A stretch of 51,540 nucleotides of DNA from Actinomycetota bacterium (GCA_016781105.1 JADDRA010000079.1:3659-55198); one strand, 5' to 3'; shown: positions 3,244-17,866, numbered from the stretch's first letter. A program made the numbers and translations. The notes: generated by a model from the letters alone, not told the origin.

Positions 3244-3741
3244 ATGATGCCACCAGGCACCACAGGGACGAGCCGGGATCAGCCGAGACGGTGGTCGCGG
3301 CGCGTTCGTGGCCAGCGAGGAGCGGTGCTCGTCGAGTTCGCCCTCGTGGTCGTCCTGCTGTTCTTCGTCCTCTACGGCATCGTCGCCTACGGCATGGCCA
3401 TCGCCCTGCGCCAGAGCATGGGCCAAGCCACGGGCGAGGCGGTTCGCGCCGCGGTGGTGTCAGCTGCCGCCACGCCCGCCGAGCGGGAGGCCGAGGCCGA
3501 GGCGTTCGCCGAGGCGTCCACCAACGGCTTGGGCAAGCCCGGCTACGGCGACGCCGATGCGACCGTCGCCACCTGCGCCAGCTTCGCGCCGGCCGCGACG
3601 CCGCCTCCCGGCGGTCAGTGCATCGAGGTCGTCTTCACCTACGACTACCGCGGTGACGGCGCCATCGTGCCCGGCGGACCCTTCGGGGTGGTCCTCCCCG
3701 ATACCCTCACGGCCAGCGCCGTGGGCCGGATCGTGCCATGA
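3244..3741 (+). CDS. TadE-like pseudopilin
   Basis: QRG|AVLVEFALV prepilin cleavage motif followed by a hydrophobic helix. Confidence 0.8.
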   Translation: MMPPGTTGTSRDQPRRWSRRVRGQRGAVLVEFALVVVLLFFVLYGIVAYGMAIALRQSMGQATGEAVRAAVVSAAATPAEREAEAEAFAEASTNGLGKPGYGDADATVATCASFAPAATPPPGGQCIEVVFTYDYRGDGAIVPGGPFGVVLPDTLTASAVGRIVP

Positions 3742-5384
3742 GCACCGGTTCCCTGCTCCGACGCAACGCCGACGGTGAGCGAGGCGCCGTACTGGTCTTC
3801 GCCGCGGTCGGCCTGGTCGTGGCCATCTTCGCCGCCGCCATGGCCATCGACGTCGGCTCGGTCATCTGGCGCAAGCGCGACCTGCAGGTGGTCGCCGACC
3901 TGGCCGCAACCGACACCGCCCAGCAGCTGGCCACCCTGACCGGTGGCGCCACCCAGGCCGCCGCCGACCAACTGGCCCGGGAGAGCGCCACCCGCAACGA
4001 CTTCGCCTTCGCCGCCACCGGCAACAGCCTGGTGGTCGAGCTCGGTACCTTCGGTCCGACCGGGAGCTTCGTGCTCTCGGCGCCGGCCGACGCCACCGCG
4101 GTGCAGGTCACGGCCCGGCGCCTGGTCGACCACACCTTCTTCCCCGGCGGCACCGGCACCACCGTCACCACCCGGGCCGTCGCCTCCTTCACCAACGAGC
4201 CCCGCGCCGCGTTCTCCATCGGCTCCAAGCTGGCGTCACTCGACACCCGGACCAGCAACGTGCTCGGGCCGGTGCTCAGCGAGTTGCTCGGCGTGAACCC
4301 GGCGCTGACCGCAGGCGTGGCGACCTACGAGGGGTTGGCCTCGAGCGCCGTCGCGCTGGGTGACCTGGCCGCCGAGCTGGGCTTCGCCACCGTCGATGAG
4401 CTCCTCGCCGCCAACGTCCGCGTCCCCCAGCTGGCGGACGCCGCCGCCCAGATCTTCGATCGGGACGGCACCGTCGACGCCAGCGTGGTCAACGCCCTCC
4501 TCGCCATCGCCGTCGACGGCGACAGCAGCGTGGACAGCCGGGTCGTCGCCTTTGGCAGCATCGTCGAGGTCGAGCAGGGCCAGGGCGACGCCGCTGCAGC
4601 CATGGGCGTCAACGTCCTCGACCTGCTCACCAGCGCCGGCCAGCGGGCCACGGTCGCCAGCGGGACGAGCTTCCTGACCGTCCCCCTGAACGTGGCCATC
4701 CCCGGGCTGGCCTCGTCGTCGCTGCGCCTCGACCTCATCGAACCCGCCGTCATCTCGGCCTTTGGCCCCGTTGGCACACAGGCCGAGACCGCCCAGATCG
4801 AGACCACCCTCACGACCCGCATCGAGGTGACGACGCCCAGCATCTGCGTGCTCCTGGTCTGCATTCCCCGCCTGCTAACGGTCGACCTCCCGATCGTGGT
4901 CACCGGCGCCGACGCGGTCGGCACCATCTCCGACATCCGCTGCCTGGTCCCCGAACCCGAGAGCGAGGTCGACATCACCGTCGTCACCGGAGGAGCGTCG
5001 GCGACGGCGAACGCCACGGCCAGCATCGTCGACATCGGCGTCGACGCGGCCAGCGCCGGGCCCATCGAAATCGGTCCCGATGTCACCAACCCACCGCTCA
5101 CCTTCCCCGGTCCCGCCGATCCCAGCCCCATGGTGTTCCCCTCGGCGATCCAGTCGACGCCCGGGGCACAGACGCTGGCCACCAGCTTGATCACCGATGC
5201 GCAGCTGAGCCTGGCGGGCCTCGACGCCGGACAGCTCCTGAGCCTGGTGCGGCCGGTCACCGACCAGATCGACGCCGTCATCCTCAACCCGTTGTTCGAT
5301 GCCCTCGGGCTCTCGGTCGGCGGTGCCGACCTTCGCACCCGGGGAGTGGAGTGCGACGGGGGGTCGTCCCGGCTGGTGCAGTAG
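3738..5384 (+). CDS. TadG-like pilus assembly protein (Tad domain, large C-terminal extracellular region)
   Basis: ERG|AVLVF, AIDVG...KRDLQVVADLAA motif; ATGA overlap with the TadE gene. Confidence 0.75.
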   Translation: MSTGSLLRRNADGERGAVLVFAAVGLVVAIFAAAMAIDVGSVIWRKRDLQVVADLAATDTAQQLATLTGGATQAAADQLARESATRNDFAFAATGNSLVVELGTFGPTGSFVLSAPADATAVQVTARRLVDHTFFPGGTGTTVTTRAVASFTNEPRAAFSIGSKLASLDTRTSNVLGPVLSELLGVNPALTAGVATYEGLASSAVALGDLAAELGFATVDELLAANVRVPQLADAAAQIFDRDGTVDASVVNALLAIAVDGDSSVDSRVVAFGSIVEVEQGQGDAAAAMGVNVLDLLTSAGQRATVASGTSFLTVPLNVAIPGLASSSLRLDLIEPAVISAFGPVGTQAETAQIETTLTTRIEVTTPSICVLLVCIPRLLTVDLPIVVTGADAVGTISDIRCLVPEPESEVDITVVTGGASATANATASIVDIGVDAASAGPIEIGPDVTNPPLTFPGPADPSPMVFPSAIQSTPGAQTLATSLITDAQLSLAGLDAGQLLSLVRPVTDQIDAVILNPLFDALGLSVGGADLRTRGVECDGGSSRLVQ

Positions 5385-5387
5385 GCC

Positions 5388-5948
5388 CTAGCGGGCGAAC
5401 AGCTCCCGGACGCTCAGGTTGAAGCCGGGGAGCTGGGGCGAGCCCAGCTCGTGCTCGGTCACCAGGGTCAGGTGGACGTCGAACACCGGGGCCTCGGGCG
5501 ACGAACGACGGTGGACCAGGACCACCTCGGCCTCGGTGTCGACCAGCCACAGCTCTGGCAGCCCGGCCCGTTCGTAGGTGTCCTTCTTGACCTCGGTGTC
5601 GTGGCGCCAGGTCGACGGCGAGCTGACTTCGACGGCGAGGTCGGGCGGACCTTCCAGGCTGCGTGCACCCTCACCTGGACGACGCGCCTCGGTCACCCAC
5701 CACAGGCCCGGGGCGAACACGTTGCGCTCGTCGAGCACCACGTCGACCGCGATGCCGGCCTCGCCTCGCCCCGGCCCCTCCTCGGTCCACTCGGCGAGGC
5801 AGCGAGCCAGGAACATGACGATGCGCTGGTGACGGAAGCTGGCTTCGGTCACGATGATCTCCCCGTCGATGAGCTGGGTGAAGCGGTACTCGTCGAGGGG
5901 AAGCTCGAGGAACTCGTCGGCCGTGAGCCCTTGATCGGCCAGCGCCAT
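5388..5948 (-). CDS. Uma2-family (PD-(D/E)xK) endonuclease-like protein
   Basis: LTADEF, QLIDGEI, RHQ, PDLAVEVSSPST, KKDTYERAGLPELWLVD; ATG at 5948. Confidence 0.85.
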   Translation of the reverse strand: MALADQGLTADEFLELPLDEYRFTQLIDGEIIVTEASFRHQRIVMFLARCLAEWTEEGPGRGEAGIAVDVVLDERNVFAPGLWWVTEARRPGEGARSLEGPPDLAVEVSSPSTWRHDTEVKKDTYERAGLPELWLVDTEAEVVLVHRRSSPEAPVFDVHLTLVTEHELGSPQLPGFNLSVRELFAR

Positions 5949-5984
5949 CAAGACCAGGCTACCCACGCCCTGGGACAGGGTCGC

Positions 5985-6989
5985 TCAGCCGAGCAGGCCC
6001 AGGGCCTCCACCGCTTCGGCCTCGTCGACCAGCTCCGACACCGAGGCGTCGATCCGTTCCCGCGAGAACCGACCGATCTCCAACCCGGCGACGATCGACC
6101 ACTCGCCGTCGGCACACGTCACCGGGAACGACGACACCAGGCCCTCGGGCACCCCGTAGGAGCCGTCGGAGACCACCGCCATCGACGTCCAGTCGTCGTC
6201 GGGGGTGCCCGCCACCCAGTCGCGCACGTGGTCGATGGCCGCCGCCGCGGCCGAGCCGGCACTCGACGCGCCGCGGGCGGCGATGATGGCGGCCCCCCGC
6301 CCCTGGACCCCGGGGACGAAGTCGCCCTCGAGCCAGGCCTGATCGTCGTGCAGCGCGTCCAGGGCCGGCCTCGAACCCACCCGGGCGTGGGACACGTCGG
6401 GGTACTGCGTGGACGAGTGGTTGCCCCAGATCGTCATGCGGCTGACCTCGCCGACCGACACCCCCACCCTGGCTGCCAGGCTCGCCTTGGCCCGGTTGTG
6501 GTCGAGGCGGGTCATGGCGCTGAAGTGGCGGGGGTCCAGGCCGGGGGCGTTGCGCTGGGCGATGAGGCAGTTGCTGTTGGCCGGGTTGCCGACCACGAGC
6601 ACCCGCACGTCGGGCGAGGCCCGCTCGGCCAGGGCCCGGCCCTGGACGCCGAAGATGGCGCCGTTGGCCTCCAGCAGATCGGCCCGCTCCATCCCCGCGG
6701 TGCGAGGCCGGGACCCGACCAACAGGGCGAGCTCGACCGAATCGAAGGCGGCACCGGAATCGTCGCTGCAGGTCAGCCCCTCGAGCAGGGGGAAGGCGCA
6801 GTCGGCCAGCTCCATGGCCACGCCCTCCAGCGCAGGCAGGGCCGGGGCGATCTCCAGGAGCTGGAGGACGACGGGCTGGTCGGGACCGAGCAGATCGCCG
6901 GCGGCGATGCGAAAGACCAGGCTGTAGCCGATCTGGCCCGCTGCCCCGGTGACGGCGACCCGGACGGGAGCGACGGCGGGCGGCGGCAT
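5985..6989 (-). CDS. mdh: Malate dehydrogenase (type 2)
   Basis: [38 protein letters not shown]; start trimmed to ATG 6989. Confidence 0.95.
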
Positions 6990-7119: not shown

Positions 7120-9558
<2,439 letters not shown>

Positions 9559-12281: not shown

Positions 12282-13181
12282 TTACCGGCGGTCCGCGATG
12301 ACGTCGAAGGGTGGTCTCCCCGGGCCGAGGCCGAGGTTGGCGTAGATCTCCCTGGTCGCGGTGGAGCGGTTGAGGGTGTAGAAGTGCAACCCCGGCGCCC
12401 CCCCGTCGAGCAGCTCGGCGCACAGCTCGGTGGCCACCTCCACCCCGATTCGGCGCACGTCCTCGGGGCGGTCGGCCACGGCCTGGAGGCGCTCGGCCAG
12501 CTCGGGCGGGAAGGCCGCCCCCGAGAGGGCGGCGAAGCGCTCGACCTGGCCCACGTTGGTGACGGGCATGACCCCGGGGACCACCGGGCGCTCGACGCCC
12601 AAGGCGTCGAGCTCCTCGACCATGGTGAAGTAGTCGCGTGCCCGGAAGAAGAACTGGGTGATGCCGAAGTCGGCGGCAGCCAGCTTGGCCGCCAGGTGGC
12701 GGCGGTCATCGGTGCGGGTCGTCGAGCGGGGATGGCCCTCGGGGTGGGCGGCCACGCCCACCGAGAACGGACCCCGCTCCCGGACGAGCTCCACCAGCTC
12801 CAGGGCGTAGCGGAAGTCGACGGGAGGGGGTGCGGACGTGGTGCCTGACGGGGGGTCCCCGGCCAGGGCCAGGATGTTCTCCACGCCGGCCTCCCGGTAG
12901 CCGTCGAGGATCTCGACCAGCTCGGCTCGCCGGTGGCCGGCGCAGGTCAGATGGGCCATGGGGGTCATCGACGTGGCCGCCAGGATGTCGAGCACGATCT
13001 CGCGGGTGCGGGCCCGGGTGCTCCCGCCGGCACCGTAGGTGACCGACACGAACGAGGGGGCCAACGGCTCCAGCTCGGCCAGGGCCTTCTCCAGGGCTCG
13101 TGCCGCCTCGTCGGTGCGGGGCGGGAAGAACTCGAAGGAGACGCAGGGGCCGGCGCCGAGGAGCTCGTGGACCTTGGCCAT
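12282..13181 (-). CDS. metF: 5,10-methylenetetrahydrofolate reductase
   Basis: SFEFFPP, SVTYGAGGS, AHLTC, GDPP, HPEGH, ITQFFF, HFYTLN; start ATG 13181. Confidence 0.93.
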   Translation of the reverse strand: MAKVHELLGAGPCVSFEFFPPRTDEAARALEKALAELEPLAPSFVSVTYGAGGSTRARTREIVLDILAATSMTPMAHLTCAGHRRAELVEILDGYREAGVENILALAGDPPSGTTSAPPPVDFRYALELVELVRERGPFSVGVAAHPEGHPRSTTRTDDRRHLAAKLAAADFGITQFFFRARDYFTMVEELDALGVERPVVPGVMPVTNVGQVERFAALSGAAFPPELAERLQAVADRPEDVRRIGVEVATELCAELLDGGAPGLHFYTLNRSTATREIYANLGLGPGRPPFDVIADRR

Positions 13182-13308
13182 GGGGCGCCTCAGGCTAGCC
13201 CTCGGATCTCGGCGCCTCGGGGCTTCAGGCCTCGGCCCCACCTGCCGATACGAGGAGGAGGAGGAGCGGGGGCGACGGGTGCCCACCGCCGGGCAGGAGG
13301 AGCCACCC

Positions 13309-13491
13309 ATGGCATGGCCGATGCACCTCAAGCAGCGCCACCGTGACCACGTCGTGCACCGCTGGGAGCGGCCGCCCCAGGTGGAGGAGGGCCAGATTGC
13401 CCTGGTCCACGCCCCTCGGGCCGGCGTCCTCCTCGAGCACCGGGCGGCCGATGCCGACCAGCCCGAGGACGTCGTCGACCAGCCGGTCTGA
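13309..13491 (+). CDS. Small hypothetical protein (60 aa)
   Basis: AGGAGG (13295-13300) 8 nt before ATG; MAWPMHLKQRHRDHVVHRWE...DVVDQPV; GC3-rich codons. Confidence 0.45.
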   Translation: MAWPMHLKQRHRDHVVHRWERPPQVEEGQIALVHAPRAGVLLEHRAADADQPEDVVDQPV

Positions 13492-13603
13492 ACGACCAGC
13501 CCCGCGTCCCGCGCCACCTCCCGAGCCCATGTCGTCGCCCATGGCCGACCTGCTGGTAGGAAAGAGTCGAACGCAGCGTCGAGACGATCCGGGAGGTGAC
13601 GAG

Positions 13604-14374
13604 GTGGCTGATCCGATCCGTCCCTGGCGCCGGCCCCCGCCTCCCCCGCCCGACCCGTCCATCCTGCCCCCCGATCTGGTGGCCCGGGCCCGGGGCCTGC
13701 GCCTCCAGCTGGGCGACAACATGGGCGGGGGATCCGAGCACCGGCGCCGCACCCGCAACGCCTACGACGAGGCCCTGGTCCAGGTGGCCGACCTGCTCGA
13801 GCTCCCCGGCGCCCCCGACCCCGAGCTGGTCATCGGGCGGCGGGTGCTCACCACCCTGGAGCGCTCGCTGCTGGAGAAGGCGGTGGTCGCCCGGGGCGTC
13901 GACCTCGGCATCGCCGAGCGGCCGCGGCTCCGGGCCCTTGGTCCCGGGCCCCAACCCACCGGGCCCCCGGCTGCCGGCCGGACGCCCACCCCCGGACCTC
14001 CTGCCGCCAGTTCCCCTGGGTGGGACGGGCGCCGTCGCACACCCCCGAGCCCGAGCGTCGACCCGGCCCCGCCGGCCCCGCCCCCGCCCGTGCGGAGCCG
14101 CCGCGACAGCCTCCTGGTCGAGGCCCGAGCCATGCGCCGGCGCCTCGACCTCTACGAAGCCGACGACCGGTTGTGGCCGACCAAGGTGCAGGAGTGGTGC
14201 GAGGACCTCGACACCTACGACGGCCTGCTCATCGACCTCGCCGTGGCCACCGGCCTCCCGACCTCGGTGCTGCCCGAGGGTGACCGGCGGCGGCTGCTGG
14301 CCGAGGAGCGGGCCGGCATCGAGGGCGGCCTGGCCCGAGCCGGCCACGAGCTCGATCGCGACCGCGCCCACTGA
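13604..14374 (+). CDS. Hypothetical protein with an internally duplicated helical domain
   Basis: GGGAGG RBS before GTG 13604; two copies of a YDxxL...ERxxxE...G motif separated by a Pro-rich linker. Confidence 0.6.
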   Translation: MADPIRPWRRPPPPPPDPSILPPDLVARARGLRLQLGDNMGGGSEHRRRTRNAYDEALVQVADLLELPGAPDPELVIGRRVLTTLERSLLEKAVVARGVDLGIAERPRLRALGPGPQPTGPPAAGRTPTPGPPAASSPGWDGRRRTPPSPSVDPAPPAPPPPVRSRRDSLLVEARAMRRRLDLYEADDRLWPTKVQEWCEDLDTYDGLLIDLAVATGLPTSVLPEGDRRRLLAEERAGIEGGLARAGHELDRDRAH

Positions 14375-14474
14375 GCTGGGCGTCCTTCACCCTCGAGCCG
14401 GCGGCGTGCGCCGCTCGGGCTCCGGGGTAGGCTCCGGCTCGTCCCGATGTTCCTCCTTCCCTGCGAGGTGTGAG

Positions 14475-14768
14475 ATGGCTGTGGTGACCGGGCTGCGCGA
14501 CGACGACATGGAGACCACGTGGCTCCGGCCCGGAGTGACGGCCATGAGCTCGGACACCCCCCTCGGGACCGACGCCGACGGGACCGACGCTGACAGCGCC
14601 GACGTGGTCGACGGCGACAGCACCGACACCACCGACGGCGACACCGCCGACACGACCGACAGCACCGACACGACCGACAGCACCGACAGCACCGACACGA
14701 CCGACAGCACCGACACGACCGACGTCGACTCGACCGACGTGGTCGACGGCGACACCGCTGGCGCCTGA
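14475..14768 (+). CDS. 97-aa Asp/Thr/Ser-rich repeat peptide, candidate RiPP-like precursor
   Basis: GAGGTG RBS (14465-14470) then ATG; about 32-aa non-repetitive leader (LRDDDMET) followed by a DxT/DxD repeat core; overlaps the JmjC frame. Confidence 0.75.
   Translation: MAVVTGLRDDDMETTWLRPGVTAMSSDTPLGTDADGTDADSADVVDGDSTDTTDGDTADTTDSTDTTDSTDSTDTTDSTDTTDVDSTDVVDGDTAGA
14568..14756 (+). repeat. Coding tandem repeat (about 9-bp unit ACCGACAGC/ACCGACACG)
   Basis: Encodes D-T-T / D-S-T triplets. Confidence 0.85.
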
Positions 14769-16017
14769 GGCCCCCGCCGCAGTCGGCGGCGCGCTGGCCC
14801 GCTGCGTCGGCGACGCCGCCGACTTCCTCGACCGGAGCTGGGCCCGCCGGCCCCACCGCCTCGACCCCCCCGACCCCGGAGCCTTCGCCGACCTGCTGTC
14901 GCTGGCAGCCGTCGACCACGTCCTGTCGACGACCGCCCCGCGCACGCCCTCCTTCCGGCTGGTCGCCGACGGCACCCCCCTGCCCGAACCCTCCTACACC
15001 CGGTCGGGCCAGGTGGGGGGCAAGCCCTACCGGGGGGCAGCCGATGTCGCCCGGCTGTCCCAGGCCTTCGCCGACGGGGCCACCGTCGTGCTCCAGTCGC
15101 TGCACCGCTCGTGGGCGCCGCTGGCCCGCTTCTGCCGTGACCTGGAGCTGACCCTCACCCATCCGGTGCAGGCCAACGCCTACCTCACCCCGGCCGGGGC
15201 CACCGCACTGGCGCCCCACCACGACACCCACGACGTGTTCGTGCTGCAGATCCACGGCCACAAGCACTGGCGTGTGGCCGAGCCGGTGGTGGAGGCGCCC
15301 CTCCCCCGCCACCGCTCCCGCCAGGCCCTGGCCGCCGCCCAGCCGCTGCTGTTCGAGGCCGACCTGACCCCGGGCGACTGCCTGTACCTCCCCCGGGGCT
15401 TCGTCCACGCCGCCACCGCTCAGGACGGCGTCTCCCTGCACGTGACCATCGGGGTCCACGCCGTGACCGCTCACGACGTGCTCGCCGCCGTGGTCGACCG
15501 GGCCGCCGAGCACCCGGCTTTGCGGGTCCCCCTGCCCGTCGGCTTCGCCCGCGACCCCGAGGCGGCGACCCTTGCGGTGCAGGCATGCGTGGCCGAGGTC
15601 GGCCGCTGGCTGTCCTCGCTCGACCCGGTCCCGGTGGCCGAGGGGCTGCGGCGGCGGTTCTGGTCGCAGCGCCAACCCCTCCTGGAGGGCCAGCTCATCC
15701 AGCTCGTCGACCTCGGCCGCCTCGACGACGACTCGGTGGTGATCCGCCGCCCCGGTGCCATCTACGAGCCGGCGTCCCCTGGTGACGGGTACGGTGACGG
15801 GGCCGGGAGCGGGGGCGACGGGGGCCGGCTGCGCCTGCTGCTGGGCGACCGGGAGCTGGTCCTGCCCGCCGAGCTCGGTCCCGCCCTGCACCGGTTGCTC
15901 GACGGCGATCCACGACCGGTGTCAGACCTCGCCGACCTGCTCGACGAGCCGAGCCGCCTGGTCCTGGTGCGCCGGCTGGTGCGCGAGGGCCTGGTGCAGG
16001 TCGTGGCCCATGTCTGA
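14758..16017 (+). CDS. JmjC/cupin Fe(II)-2-oxoglutarate oxygenase of the ROX (RoxA/YcfD, NO66) family
   Basis: NAYLTP, H-x-D in APHHDTHDVFVLQIHGHKHW, PGDCLYLPRGFVH, C-terminal winged-helix-like LVRRLVREG. The frame is open upstream of the called GTG 15013 and encodes ALARCVG..FLDRSWARRP; probable CTG start at 14758. Confidence 0.85.
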   Translation: MAPEAPAAVGGALARCVGDAADFLDRSWARRPHRLDPPDPGAFADLLSLAAVDHVLSTTAPRTPSFRLVADGTPLPEPSYTRSGQVGGKPYRGAADVARLSQAFADGATVVLQSLHRSWAPLARFCRDLELTLTHPVQANAYLTPAGATALAPHHDTHDVFVLQIHGHKHWRVAEPVVEAPLPRHRSRQALAAAQPLLFEADLTPGDCLYLPRGFVHAATAQDGVSLHVTIGVHAVTAHDVLAAVVDRAAEHPALRVPLPVGFARDPEAATLAVQACVAEVGRWLSSLDPVPVAEGLRRRFWSQRQPLLEGQLIQLVDLGRLDDDSVVIRRPGAIYEPASPGDGYGDGAGSGGDGGRLRLLLGDRELVLPAELGPALHRLLDGDPRPVSDLADLLDEPSRLVLVRRLVREGLVQVVAHV

Positions 16018-16993
16018 GGGGGCCGCTCCCCAGGCGACGGTGTCGGTGACCTGTGCCGCGGCCTCCCTGGGCCGCCACGAGGCGTTGGTGGCCAGTGCCT
16101 CCCGGGTGCGGTCGTGGCTGCTGATCGAGCAACCCGGGTCCTGGGGCCGGGACGCCCTGCTCGAGAGCGGCCTCGACCCCGTCCTGGCGTCCGCCCTCCT
16201 GGCTCGGTGCCGGCGGGCGGGAGTGCGCCCCATCCTGATCCGGCGCCCACCCTCGCTGCACTCGGCCGCTCCCGGCGCCCTTGGCCACCGGCGTTGCTAC
16301 CTGGCCCACTCCGGGATTCACCGGAGCTGGTCGGAGGCCCTCGACCTCGACGATCCCGCCTCCCTCCTCGACCTCGACCTCGGCCTGCTGGCGTCGGACC
16401 GGCCACCGGGCCTGGGGGCCGCCGAACCCGGACCGCTGCTGTTGGTCTGCACCAACGGGCGCCACGACCGCTGCTGCTCCGACCTGGGGCGCCCCCTGGT
16501 CCGGGCCCTGGTCGAGGCCGGCTCGCACGACGTGTGGGAGTGCTCCCACATCGGCGGAGACCGCTTCGCCGCCAACCTCGTGTGCCTGCCCGAGGGCGTC
16601 TACTTCGGACGGGTGGCGGCTACCGCCGGCCCAGGGGTGGTCGCCGACTACCGGCGCGGCCAGCTCAGCCTCGAGCACTACCGGGGTCGGTCGTCCCACC
16701 CCTCGCTGGTGCAGGCCGCGGAGCTGTTCGTGCGCCGGGCCAGTGGCCTGCTCGGGCTCGACGCCCTCCTGCCTCGCGCGGTCGAACCGCTCGGCGAGGA
16801 CGAGGCCGAGGTCACCTTCGTCACCGCGGGCGCCCCCGCCTCCTCGCCGCCGGGGTGGCGGGCCCGGGTGGGCCGGCGGCGCTCCCCGTGCCCGGCGGTG
16901 CTCACCTGCCGGTCGGACCGGGCCTCCTGTCCCTGGGAGTACCACCTGGTCGACCTGTCGCCGCTGGCCCTGGCCCCCTCGTCTCCCGCCTGA
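16010..16993 (+). CDS. Sucrase/ferredoxin-like (thioredoxin-like 2Fe-2S, Apd1/Aim32-like) protein
   Basis: WLLIEQPGSWG, LLVCTNGRHDRCC, WECSHIGGDRFAAN, YRGRS; ATG 16010 overlaps the JmjC stop by 8 nt. Confidence 0.85.
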   Translation: MSEGAAPQATVSVTCAAASLGRHEALVASASRVRSWLLIEQPGSWGRDALLESGLDPVLASALLARCRRAGVRPILIRRPPSLHSAAPGALGHRRCYLAHSGIHRSWSEALDLDDPASLLDLDLGLLASDRPPGLGAAEPGPLLLVCTNGRHDRCCSDLGRPLVRALVEAGSHDVWECSHIGGDRFAANLVCLPEGVYFGRVAATAGPGVVADYRRGQLSLEHYRGRSSHPSLVQAAELFVRRASGLLGLDALLPRAVEPLGEDEAEVTFVTAGAPASSPPGWRARVGRRRSPCPAVLTCRSDRASCPWEYHLVDLSPLALAPSSPA

Positions 16994-17008
16994 GCAAGCC
17001 CGGCGCGC

Positions 17009-17866
17009 TCAGCGCCGGCGCCGCTCGGCGGCGGCCACCGTGTTGGCCAGGAGCATGGCCACCGTGGTGGGGCCCACTCCGCCCACCCGAGGTGTGATCC
17101 ACCCGGCCACCTCGGCCACCGACTCGTCGACGTCGGGCAGGATGCGCCGACCCTGGTAGCGCACCCCACCGCCCACCACCACCGCGCCGGGGCGGACGTG
17201 GCCGAGCTGGAGGATCCCGGGAACGCCGGCGGCGGCGATGACGACGTCGGCCCGCCGGGTGTGCTCGGCCCACTCGGGCACCCCGGTGTGGACCACGGTG
17301 ACCGCGGCGTTGGCCGTGGGCCGCTTCTGGCTGAGGAGCAGGGCCAGGGGCCGCCCGAGAGTGAAGCCCCGGCCCAGGATCACGACGTGGCGCCCGGCGA
17401 CGGGCACCTCGTAGTGGGCCAGCAGCGCTTCGATGCCGGCCGGGGTGCAGGGGACGGGACCGGGCATCGACAGGGCCAGGCGACCGAGGTTGGCCGGGTG
17501 GAGCCCGTCGGCGTCCTTGTCGGGGTCCATGGTGGCCAGGGCGGCCTCGTAGTCGATCTGGGCCGGCGTGGGGTGCTGGACGAGCATGGCGTCGACCGCG
17601 TCGTCGTCGTTGAAGTCGCGGATGGCGCCCACGAGGTCGTCCTGGGTGGCGTCGGCCGGGAGGTGACGGTGCGACGAGGCGATGCCGAGCTCGTCGGAGC
17701 GGGCGTGCTTGCCCCGGATGTAGCCGGCGCTGGCCGGGTCGTCGCCCACCAGGATGGTCCCCAACCCGGGCCGGTGCCCGGCAGCCACCAGCGCCTCGAT
17801 CCGGGGCCGCAGGCCGGCCAGCACCGCCTCGGCCACCGGTCCCCCGGGCATGAGCACGGCGGTCAT
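17009..17866 (-). CDS. folD: Methylenetetrahydrofolate dehydrogenase/cyclohydrolase
   Basis: [34 protein letters not shown]. Confidence 0.93.

Follow-up and report, generated by a model that had tools for sequence, protein, structure and literature searches.

The window, a stretch of 51,540 nucleotides from an Actinomycetota bacterium (GCA_016781105.1, contig JADDRA010000079.1, 3659 to 55198) in whose numbering we give all positions, carries on its plus strand three consecutive genes that may form a dedicated, leader-guided module for peptide hydroxylation, a reading to which we give a probability of about one half. They encode a small acidic repeat protein (hereafter the peptide), a JmjC-type Fe(II)/2-oxoglutarate (2OG) oxygenase related to the ribosomal oxygenases (ROX), and a protein of the thioredoxin-like ferredoxin family, Suc_Fer. 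A sequence-only reading of the window had proposed here a system akin to those for peptides synthesized by ribosomes and modified after translation (RiPPs), composed of three plus-strand frames, and these are indeed found: the peptide at 14475-14768, the JmjC frame ending at 16017, and the Suc_Fer-like frame at 16010-16993. The arrangement is more than chance. The RiPP-like interpretation is the best available, with in silico support for recognition of the leader.

In the mechanism that we propose, the small gene would encode a disordered protein made of a recognition head and a hypervariable core, one third of which is Asp. JmjC would dock the head on its C-terminal winged helix, in the manner of a RiPP recognition element (RRE), and would oxidise side chains in the core thus tethered to it, most likely by hydroxylating Asp at the beta-carbon in many positions. 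The Suc_Fer-like protein would probably be a [2Fe-2S] redox partner that keeps the oxygenase iron as Fe(II) or returns it to that state; alternatively, it might act on the product. Translation of JmjC would be coupled to the peptide open reading frame (ORF), in the window from a near-cognate codon, which would yield much peptide and little enzyme. Since no protease or exporter is conserved nearby, the modified protein would most likely stay in the cell with its head attached, where it could serve as a metal-binding or buffering polyanion.

Three genes conserved together

A pattern scan with one genome per species returned at least 586 close relatives of JmjC among 600 matched stretches, so the module is not rare. 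We analysed the best 80 loci, which come from Acidimicrobiales, Nitriliruptorales, Nocardioidaceae, a Mycobacteriales metagenome-assembled genome (MAG), Micromonospora and one MAG labelled Deltaproteobacteria. The gene-neighbourhood survey that the sequence-only reading had asked for was made on these loci. Upstream of JmjC, a small ORF of the peptide family is present in all 76 loci that have at least 250 nt of upstream DNA (one is partly masked), and the head motif can be seen in 75 of them. Seventy of these peptides were detected automatically by leader and acidity, five more show the motif on inspection (L044, L048, L056, L074 and L084), and in L038 the head is N-masked and the acidic tail is visible. 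Downstream, 65 of 74 loci have the Suc_Fer-like gene directly next to JmjC in the same orientation; the gene is convergent in five loci and absent from four. Among the relatives of the window's organism, JmjC occurs in 11 of 41 genomes, and eight of the nine loci have the trio arrangement, the ninth being divergent. The trio is conserved across genomes, and the test to which the sequence-only reading had exposed itself thus came out in its favour. We did not count the absence of the cassette from four MAGs of the same genus as evidence: three of them also yielded no neighbouring folD and the fourth only part of it, which makes it probable that the assemblies lack this region. Three of the 80 loci belong to cultured strains (Nocardioides ferulae, L085; Micromonospora lutea, L074; Micromonospora sp. 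HNM0581, L084), which makes the hypothesis directly testable.

Beyond the trio, nothing is conserved among 88 neighbouring ORFs from 26 loci, and no protease or transporter recurs there. This agrees with the earlier statement that no protease, transporter or signal peptide is evident. A leader protease or an exporter is not a universal requirement of RiPP systems.

The peptide of the window has 97 residues, including 27 Asp and 25 Thr, and is a putative precursor or substrate. Its head (residues 1-19, MAVVTGLRDDDMETTWLRP; 14475-14531) is a putative recognition, or leader, sequence with the core motif L-x-D-D/E-D/E-I/M-x-T, in which L7, D9, D11 and T14 are invariant in an alignment of 19 peptides. 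A search of Pfam with the head, at E values up to 10, gave no family. The core (14564-14740) consists of Asp/Thr/Ser repeats in xTD units; its DNA is a tandem repeat of period 9/18/27 according to Tandem Repeats Finder, and short-read contigs break inside it. Across relatives the head is conserved and the core is hypervariable in both length and sequence. This is the pattern by which precursors of RiPP systems are recognised, and it bears out the leader-plus-repeat description given in the sequence-only reading. The 70 distinct peptides are 52-131 residues long (median 71) and mostly end in TDA, TDS or DAS. Their cores, in which xTD is the commonest unit, contain 32% Asp (12-48 residues each), 2.8% Glu, 14% Thr and 17% Gly. 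The large excess of Asp over Glu points to a chemistry specific to Asp rather than to charge alone. The Micromonospora peptides (L074 and L084, at about 3630-3880) have the family head, MPLNDDDMQTT, followed by a Gly/Ala/Pro/Asp repeat with His and Gln and fewer Asp, which shows that Asp density is not absolute. The family comprises at least 215 database clusters; every named one is a 'hypothetical protein' and none has a Pfam domain. The gene is single-copy in genome G000. As a separate observation, 71% of the Asp residues in the cores of the 70 loci are followed by Gly, Ala or Ser. Such contexts are the most prone to succinimide and isoaspartate formation.

Could the small ORF be no gene at all, but a chance open frame or a wrongly chosen one? 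The G+C content of the window is 75%, a level at which long ORFs arise in all six frames, and the peptide is predicted to be disordered (Atlas pLDDT, the predicted local distance difference test, 0.23). Against this, G+C at third codon positions (GC3) is 0.85-1.00 when these bases are read in the peptide frame and 0.45-0.68 when they are read in that of JmjC, the head is conserved while the core varies, and the ORF is found at every one of the 76 loci and has homologs in the 215 or more clusters mentioned above. We consider this explanation very improbable.

JmjC (14767-16017, 416 codons counted from the peptide stop) is a ROX-family oxygenase with intact catalytic residues, as the sequence-only reading had it. 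It matches the Pfam family JmjC_2 (PF08007) with an E value of 2.6e-28 and 98.5 bits, for a cut-off of 22. The iron-binding facial triad is formed by H151 and D153, within the family-invariant HHDTHD (H151-x-D153 at 15217-15225), and by the distal H214 (15406-15408) in PRGFVH, which aligns with PRGFIH of NO66. K166 (15262-15264), in the G-x-K-x-W motif aligned with GRKLW of NO66, is the predicted ligand of the 2OG C5-carboxylate, a role that we take over from ROX structures. All four residues are invariant in 14 homologs and align with the iron and 2OG ligands of NO66. A profile of these homologs lies nearest to NO66 and MINA53 (E about 1e-31), with YcfD/RoxA (about 1e-10) and YxbC further away. 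The AlphaFold2 (AF2) model (pLDDT 82.3; predicted template modelling score, pTM, 0.77) has the three-domain build of ROX enzymes, with a barrel, a helical dimerisation domain and a C-terminal winged helix. In Foldseek, its full length matches NO66 (E 7e-22, TMq 0.63, about 470 columns), and YcfD follows with an E value of 1.4e-15.

The Suc_Fer-like protein (16010-16993, 327 residues), whose ATG overlaps the JmjC stop by 8 nt, matches PF06999 with an E value of 8.4e-18 and 65.6 bits (cut-off 34.9), over profile positions 97-191 of 191 only. Its N-terminal 147 residues gave no Pfam family at E values up to 10. C147, H152, D153, C155, C156, H180 and D184 are invariant in all 61 aligned homologs, and C15 and C300 nearly so. 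Apd1-type clusters are held by two Cys and two His. The yeast proteins Apd1 and Aim32 belong to the same PF06999 family and have C-x7/8-C and H-x3-(H/D) motifs; unlike in them, the position of the second His is Asp184 in 61 of 61 homologs, and the gene adjoins JmjC. The pattern agrees with a [2Fe-2S] site of thioredoxin-like type, as in Apd1/Aim32 but with Asp for the second His; C147, C155/C156, H180 and D184 (C-x7-CC and H-x-G-G-D; 16448-16561) are the candidate ligands. To our knowledge, no bacterial Suc_Fer-like member has a known function. The Micromonospora JmjC genes (L074 and L084) are not followed by a Suc_Fer-like gene. In L038, where it is also missing, a pyridine-nucleotide disulfide oxidoreductase (5682-6989) and an FNR-like reductase (7636-8694) lie downstream and may be a substitute redox partner.

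Predicted docking of the head on the winged helix

A complex prediction for the full-length peptide and JmjC, one of the checks put forward in the sequence-only reading, brings the head into contact with the winged helix, with an ipSAE of 0.72 against 0.00 for the best of three controls. The mark used is reached by 116 of 157 solved complexes and by 2 of 215 mismatched pairs, counts that are only rough here because we supplied alignments of our own. The runs have at least 27% of their contacts in common, with a partner pLDDT of at least 38. In the confident part of the predicted interface, residues 1-19 of the peptide meet JmjC residues 360-373 and 389-407, which belong to the C-terminal winged-helix domain (residues 354-416; 15826-16014) as its last sheet strand and last helices. 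Peptide residues 12-15 are predicted to run along JmjC 363-365, and L7 to lie against 392-400. The predicted contact stands well above the controls and supports, at the level of models, a function of this domain as the docking site of the head.

The domain has an RRE-like fold. Modelled alone (pLDDT 81.9), it shows an N-terminal strand, strands at 37-42 and 45-50, and helices at 51-60, 68-73 and 77-89, that is, the three strands followed by three helices of the RRE type. VIA-align ranks MINA53 (Z 11.1) and NO66 (Z 8.1) as its best matches and RRE chains as the next ones (Z 4.8-7.2 over 72-82 aligned residues): TigE (7.2), PbtF (6.6), TbiB1 and MccB (6.4), ThcOx and MibB (6.3), PqqD (6.2), lasso B1 (6.1), TbtB (5.5), McbB (5.4), MadB, CteB and NisB (5.0), and LynD (4.8). 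The recurrence of one functional class among these fold matches is notable. The domain shares its strands-then-three-helices arrangement with the RREs of PbtF, TbiB1, MccB, NisB and LynD, and the predicted binding mode is also RRE-like, the leader adding a strand beside the last sheet strand and placing a hydrophobic residue on the last helix. It differs from RREs in being an ordinary ROX winged helix with no match to them at the sequence level: JmjC residues 312-416 (105 residues) gave neither PqqD/RRE nor any other family in Pfam at E values up to 10. At E ≤ 0.001, Foldseek found nothing for the isolated domain, and its ROX rows were weak as well. RRE-like folds fused to PF08007 domains have been noted before (PMC12710340).

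Precedents and alternatives

Established ROX oxygenases (NO66/RIOX1, MINA53/RIOX2 and YcfD/RoxA) have in common with JmjC the PF08007 domain, the three-part build, and the HxD...H triad with its Lys. Their targets are His or Arg in ribosomal proteins, and no small gene supplies them with a dedicated partner, whereas here the oxygenase has a private acidic peptide and a Suc_Fer-like gene, and its winged helix is predicted to hold the head of that peptide. Closer in the kind of substrate are the JmjC-type tailoring enzymes of RiPP clusters. PhaI (PF08007, phaeornamide) and BipG (JmjC, biphenomycin) hydroxylate ornithine in RiPP precursors (PMC8784127, PMC12707348), and CzlI (JmjC, curacozole) hydroxylates Phe (PMC11575548). 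They resemble the trio in pairing an Fe/2OG JmjC-type enzyme with a ribosomal precursor peptide, a substrate relation that we infer here. Their clusters encode several enzymes along with proteases and exporters, and each of them acts a single time on a short core. In contrast, the trio has JmjC as its only recognisable maturase, a core made of a long Asp repeat, and neither a conserved protease nor a conserved exporter.

The proposed chemistry also has precedents, most of them outside this enzyme family. Human AspH and FIH are Fe/2OG enzymes that make beta-hydroxy-Asp, and we know of no ROX member for which Asp beta-hydroxylation has been shown. In RiPP biosynthesis, Asp beta-hydroxylases from other 2OG families are SmaO of a graspetide cluster (PMC12186529) and CinX (cinnamycin), which is named in PMC11575548. 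All four carry out the reaction that we propose at a single site, and all but FIH come from other 2OG subfamilies. For the product, the nearest parallels are bufferins and methanobactins, in which an iron enzyme modifies a ribosomal peptide to give a metal binder (PMC11626156). Those systems use multinuclear non-heme iron oxygenases (MNIOs) acting on Cys, with signal peptides and export. The present system has no Cys, no signal peptide and a JmjC enzyme, and a metal-binding product would be a likeness by hypothesis. A literature search, with most subscription journals outside its scope, found no description of a trio of Asp-repeat peptide, JmjC and Suc_Fer. Tailoring of RiPPs by JmjC/PF08007 hydroxylases and RiPP Asp beta-hydroxylation by other 2OG families are established. 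New here are the precursor type, the obligate pairing of a ROX enzyme with a private peptide, the partner from a ferredoxin family, and the lack of a conserved neighbouring protease or exporter.

Several points weigh against a hydroxylation module. Modification of the peptide, and its chemistry, are deduced from the genes and models. Known ROX enzymes act on His or Arg and known RiPP JmjC enzymes on Orn or Phe, and none of them acts on Asp. The loci come from related organisms, so their counts do not represent independent events, and the four loci without Suc_Fer mean that this partner is not obligatory. In the predicted complex, confident placement is confined to the head, and the active site shows none of the core. 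The score of this complex measures model confidence, and it may reflect mere likeness because RRE-leader complexes are among the solved structures. The RRE matches, with Z of 5-7, fall in the range that the tool calls common (Z < 8), the Foldseek rows for RREs are weak (E 0.05-0.7), and the winged helix is a general feature of ROX enzymes, ribosomal oxygenases included.

Some of these points fit an alternative in which the acidic protein is not a substrate. It might be a regulator, adaptor or inhibitor that sits on the winged helix, or its ORF might be an upstream ORF gating the synthesis of JmjC, and the oxygenase would have its substrate elsewhere, possibly in a ribosomal protein, as RoxA does. 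The nearest relatives of JmjC are the ribosomal oxygenases NO66, MINA53 and YcfD; its translation appears to depend on the peptide ORF; the model places the head with confidence but not the core; and the absence of a conserved protease or exporter contrasts with classical RiPP clusters. Yet a purely regulatory upstream ORF needs neither a docking motif nor a long, expanding repeat specific to Asp, and coupling is not required, because the peptide gene is divergent in L010 and JmjC has a separate start in Micromonospora. We hold this to be the most serious of the alternatives, though an unlikely one.

Slightly less probable is that JmjC modifies the core in another way, by hydroxylating Thr, Ser or other residues, by forming a cross-link, or by further oxidation with the Suc_Fer-like protein as a second maturase. 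Thr and Gly are abundant in the cores, where xTD is the commonest unit, and the characterised RiPP JmjC enzymes act on Orn or Phe (PMC8784127, PMC12707348, PMC11575548). Cys15 and Cys300, invariant or nearly so in the Suc_Fer partner, exceed a minimal cluster site. A 2OG dioxygenase that macrocyclises RiPPs has reportedly been described in the Journal of the American Chemical Society, in a paper cited by PMC12710340. On the other side, Asp is the sole residue enriched in every core, including the Thr-poor Micromonospora type, and ROX and FIH-type enzymes typically hydroxylate a beta-carbon.

We therefore return to leader-guided hydroxylation of the core as the preferred reading. If it is true, the trio would add a new type of precursor, a long Asp repeat, to ribosomal peptide modification, and a new enzyme-partner pair, ROX JmjC with a thioredoxin-like ferredoxin. 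It would also provide the first non-ribosomal, genetically linked bacterial substrate for ROX-family oxygenases and assign a job to their winged-helix domain. A wider claim would take all of the following together. The trio would represent a widespread and so far undescribed class of ribosomal products in Actinomycetota, in which a ROX-type JmjC makes poly-beta-hydroxy-aspartate residue by residue; the winged helix would be a true RRE and a private [2Fe-2S] protein would service the enzyme; the cell would thereby possess an internal chelator or buffer of metals that is encoded in its genes; and JmjC would be made by non-AUG reinitiation past the stop of its own substrate. As a corollary, the winged helix of ribosomal oxygenases would descend from a peptide-recognition element, or still be one. 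Taken jointly, these claims are tentative, and we would not expect all of them to hold at once.

The peptide-JmjC junction and the surroundings of the locus

The JmjC frame reported by the sequence-only reading is present, open from 14548, but it offers no ATG, GTG or TTG before 15013. The conserved N-terminus of JmjC begins near 14788, and a start at 15013 would cost the protein about 80 conserved residues, including positions that never vary in 14 homologs and secondary-structure elements (helices and strands) of the AF2 model. The frame is +1 relative to that of the peptide, and the switch falls exactly at the peptide TGA (14766-14768). Within the junction (14758-14796), the only near-cognate candidates for a start are the CTG codons at 14758-14760 and 14794-14796; two database homologs, P0048 and P0054, begin with L and V at the position of the latter. 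We place the true start upstream of about 14794. The region is contained in 12 public DNA sequencing runs from three studies, with no RNA run listed. The junction is not an assembly slip, since contigs from the runs of two studies cover 14694-15100 without an indel and the same junction is found in seven other genomes of the window's genus and its sister genus. At position 14783, contigs from the runs of two studies have C for T; the JmjC-frame spacer, which extends from the peptide stop to the conserved motif, then has Ala in place of Val.

The start is more often canonical elsewhere. An ATG, GTG or TTG lies between 45 nt upstream of the peptide stop and the conserved JmjC motif in 42 of 70 loci; in 16 a canonical start is found only far within the peptide ORF, and 12 have none. 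The frame relation of JmjC to the peptide is 0, +1 and +2 in 19, 36 and 15 of these loci. With relation 0, a GTG or TTG follows within a few codons of the peptide stop; with relation +2, an overlap of the type CTGA (nine loci) or GTGA is usual. In Micromonospora, JmjC has its own ATG about 120 nt downstream. In L010 (genome G021), the peptide gene (head SLTDEDIKTE, core DADTTDxKDADTTDS) lies upstream of JmjC on the opposite strand, the sole divergent case seen. The varied frames, the canonical starts, L010 and Micromonospora together show that these are two genes, whose translation is usually tightly coupled. The coupling seems often to involve near-cognate codons. The CTGA overlaps, and an ATT at position -5, recur among related loci and suggest non-AUG reinitiation of JmjC after the peptide stop.

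A +1 ribosomal frameshift at GCC-UGA could instead make a single polypeptide in the window's clade, the acidic repeat being a disordered N-terminal arm of JmjC. In its favour, JmjC is in the +1 frame without a canonical start, spacers of 25, 34, 37 and 43 nt in the window's genus and sister genus all preserve that frame, and the junction has no indel in the contigs of two studies. In one database protein, P0039 (487 residues, from a 315 kb contig), the head motif, an acidic stretch and JmjC are moreover fused in frame, whether naturally or through a one-base assembly difference from L009-type loci. In a prfB-type mechanism, the P-site tRNA re-pairs in the +1 frame, with a slippery codon, a Shine-Dalgarno-like stimulator and conservation as its marks. 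These are not found at the junction: no such stimulator is evident upstream, and GCC-TGA gives no re-pairing, which the Ala tRNA could not achieve here. Furthermore, 34 of 70 loci show relation 0 or +2, a canonical start stands next to the stop in 42, and L010 is divergent. For the family as a whole we rejected a +1 frameshift on account of the varying frame relations, the adjacent GTG or TTG starts and the divergent locus, and for the window's clade we find it improbable. Two genes with coupled translation are thus the reading that we retain.

The junction has a practical consequence, as gene calls of this JmjC family are often wrong at the N-terminus and the true start is often non-canonical. 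Among 120 public calls, 59 begin at or past the conserved N-terminal motif, some of which may be cut by contig ends, 13 start in a Pro/Thr-rich, wrong-frame overlap with the peptide ORF, and one is fused.

As for the surroundings, the three genes described by the sequence-only reading hold, but they are preceded by a fourth plus-strand ORF, ORF-X (13343-14374), a Pro-rich frame with a GC3 of 0.97 and no assigned function. The hand-overs between frames are clean in the GC3 analysis: ORF-X lies in frame 2 (until 14374), the peptide in frame 0 (about 14440 to about 14740), JmjC in frame 1 (about 14740 to 16000), and the Suc_Fer-like gene in frame 2 (16000 to 16990). ORF-X matches no Pfam or NCBIfam family, and its tblastn matches are restricted to close relatives. 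It is kept ahead of the cassette in the window's genus and family alone, and we doubt that it belongs to the system. NCBIfam has no family for any of the four plus-strand proteins, and Atlas look-ups with the peptide and ORF-X returned only unnamed actinobacterial clusters with scores below 0.9. The closest database proteins come from sources named as Acidimicrobiia or Acidimicrobiales MAGs. A scan of 13000-17400 for promoters and terminators found 0 sites, as expected at such a composition. A GAGG at 14465-14468, 6 nt before the peptide ATG, resembles a Shine-Dalgarno site and may act as one; the upstream amino-acid contexts in relatives of the genus have the same stretch.

On both sides, the plus-strand ORFs are flanked by minus-strand housekeeping genes: upstream lie isocitrate dehydrogenase (Iso_dh) and MTHFR, downstream FolD, PurH and a formyltransferase. 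Elsewhere, some clades have their own same-strand genes upstream of the cassette: a LAL-type LuxR regulator (AAA_16 and GerE) in L066 (622-3663), L073 (353-3556) and L085 (550-3576), and a luciferase-like monooxygenase in L019 (2646-3713), L024 (2668-3732) and L034 (2679-3713).

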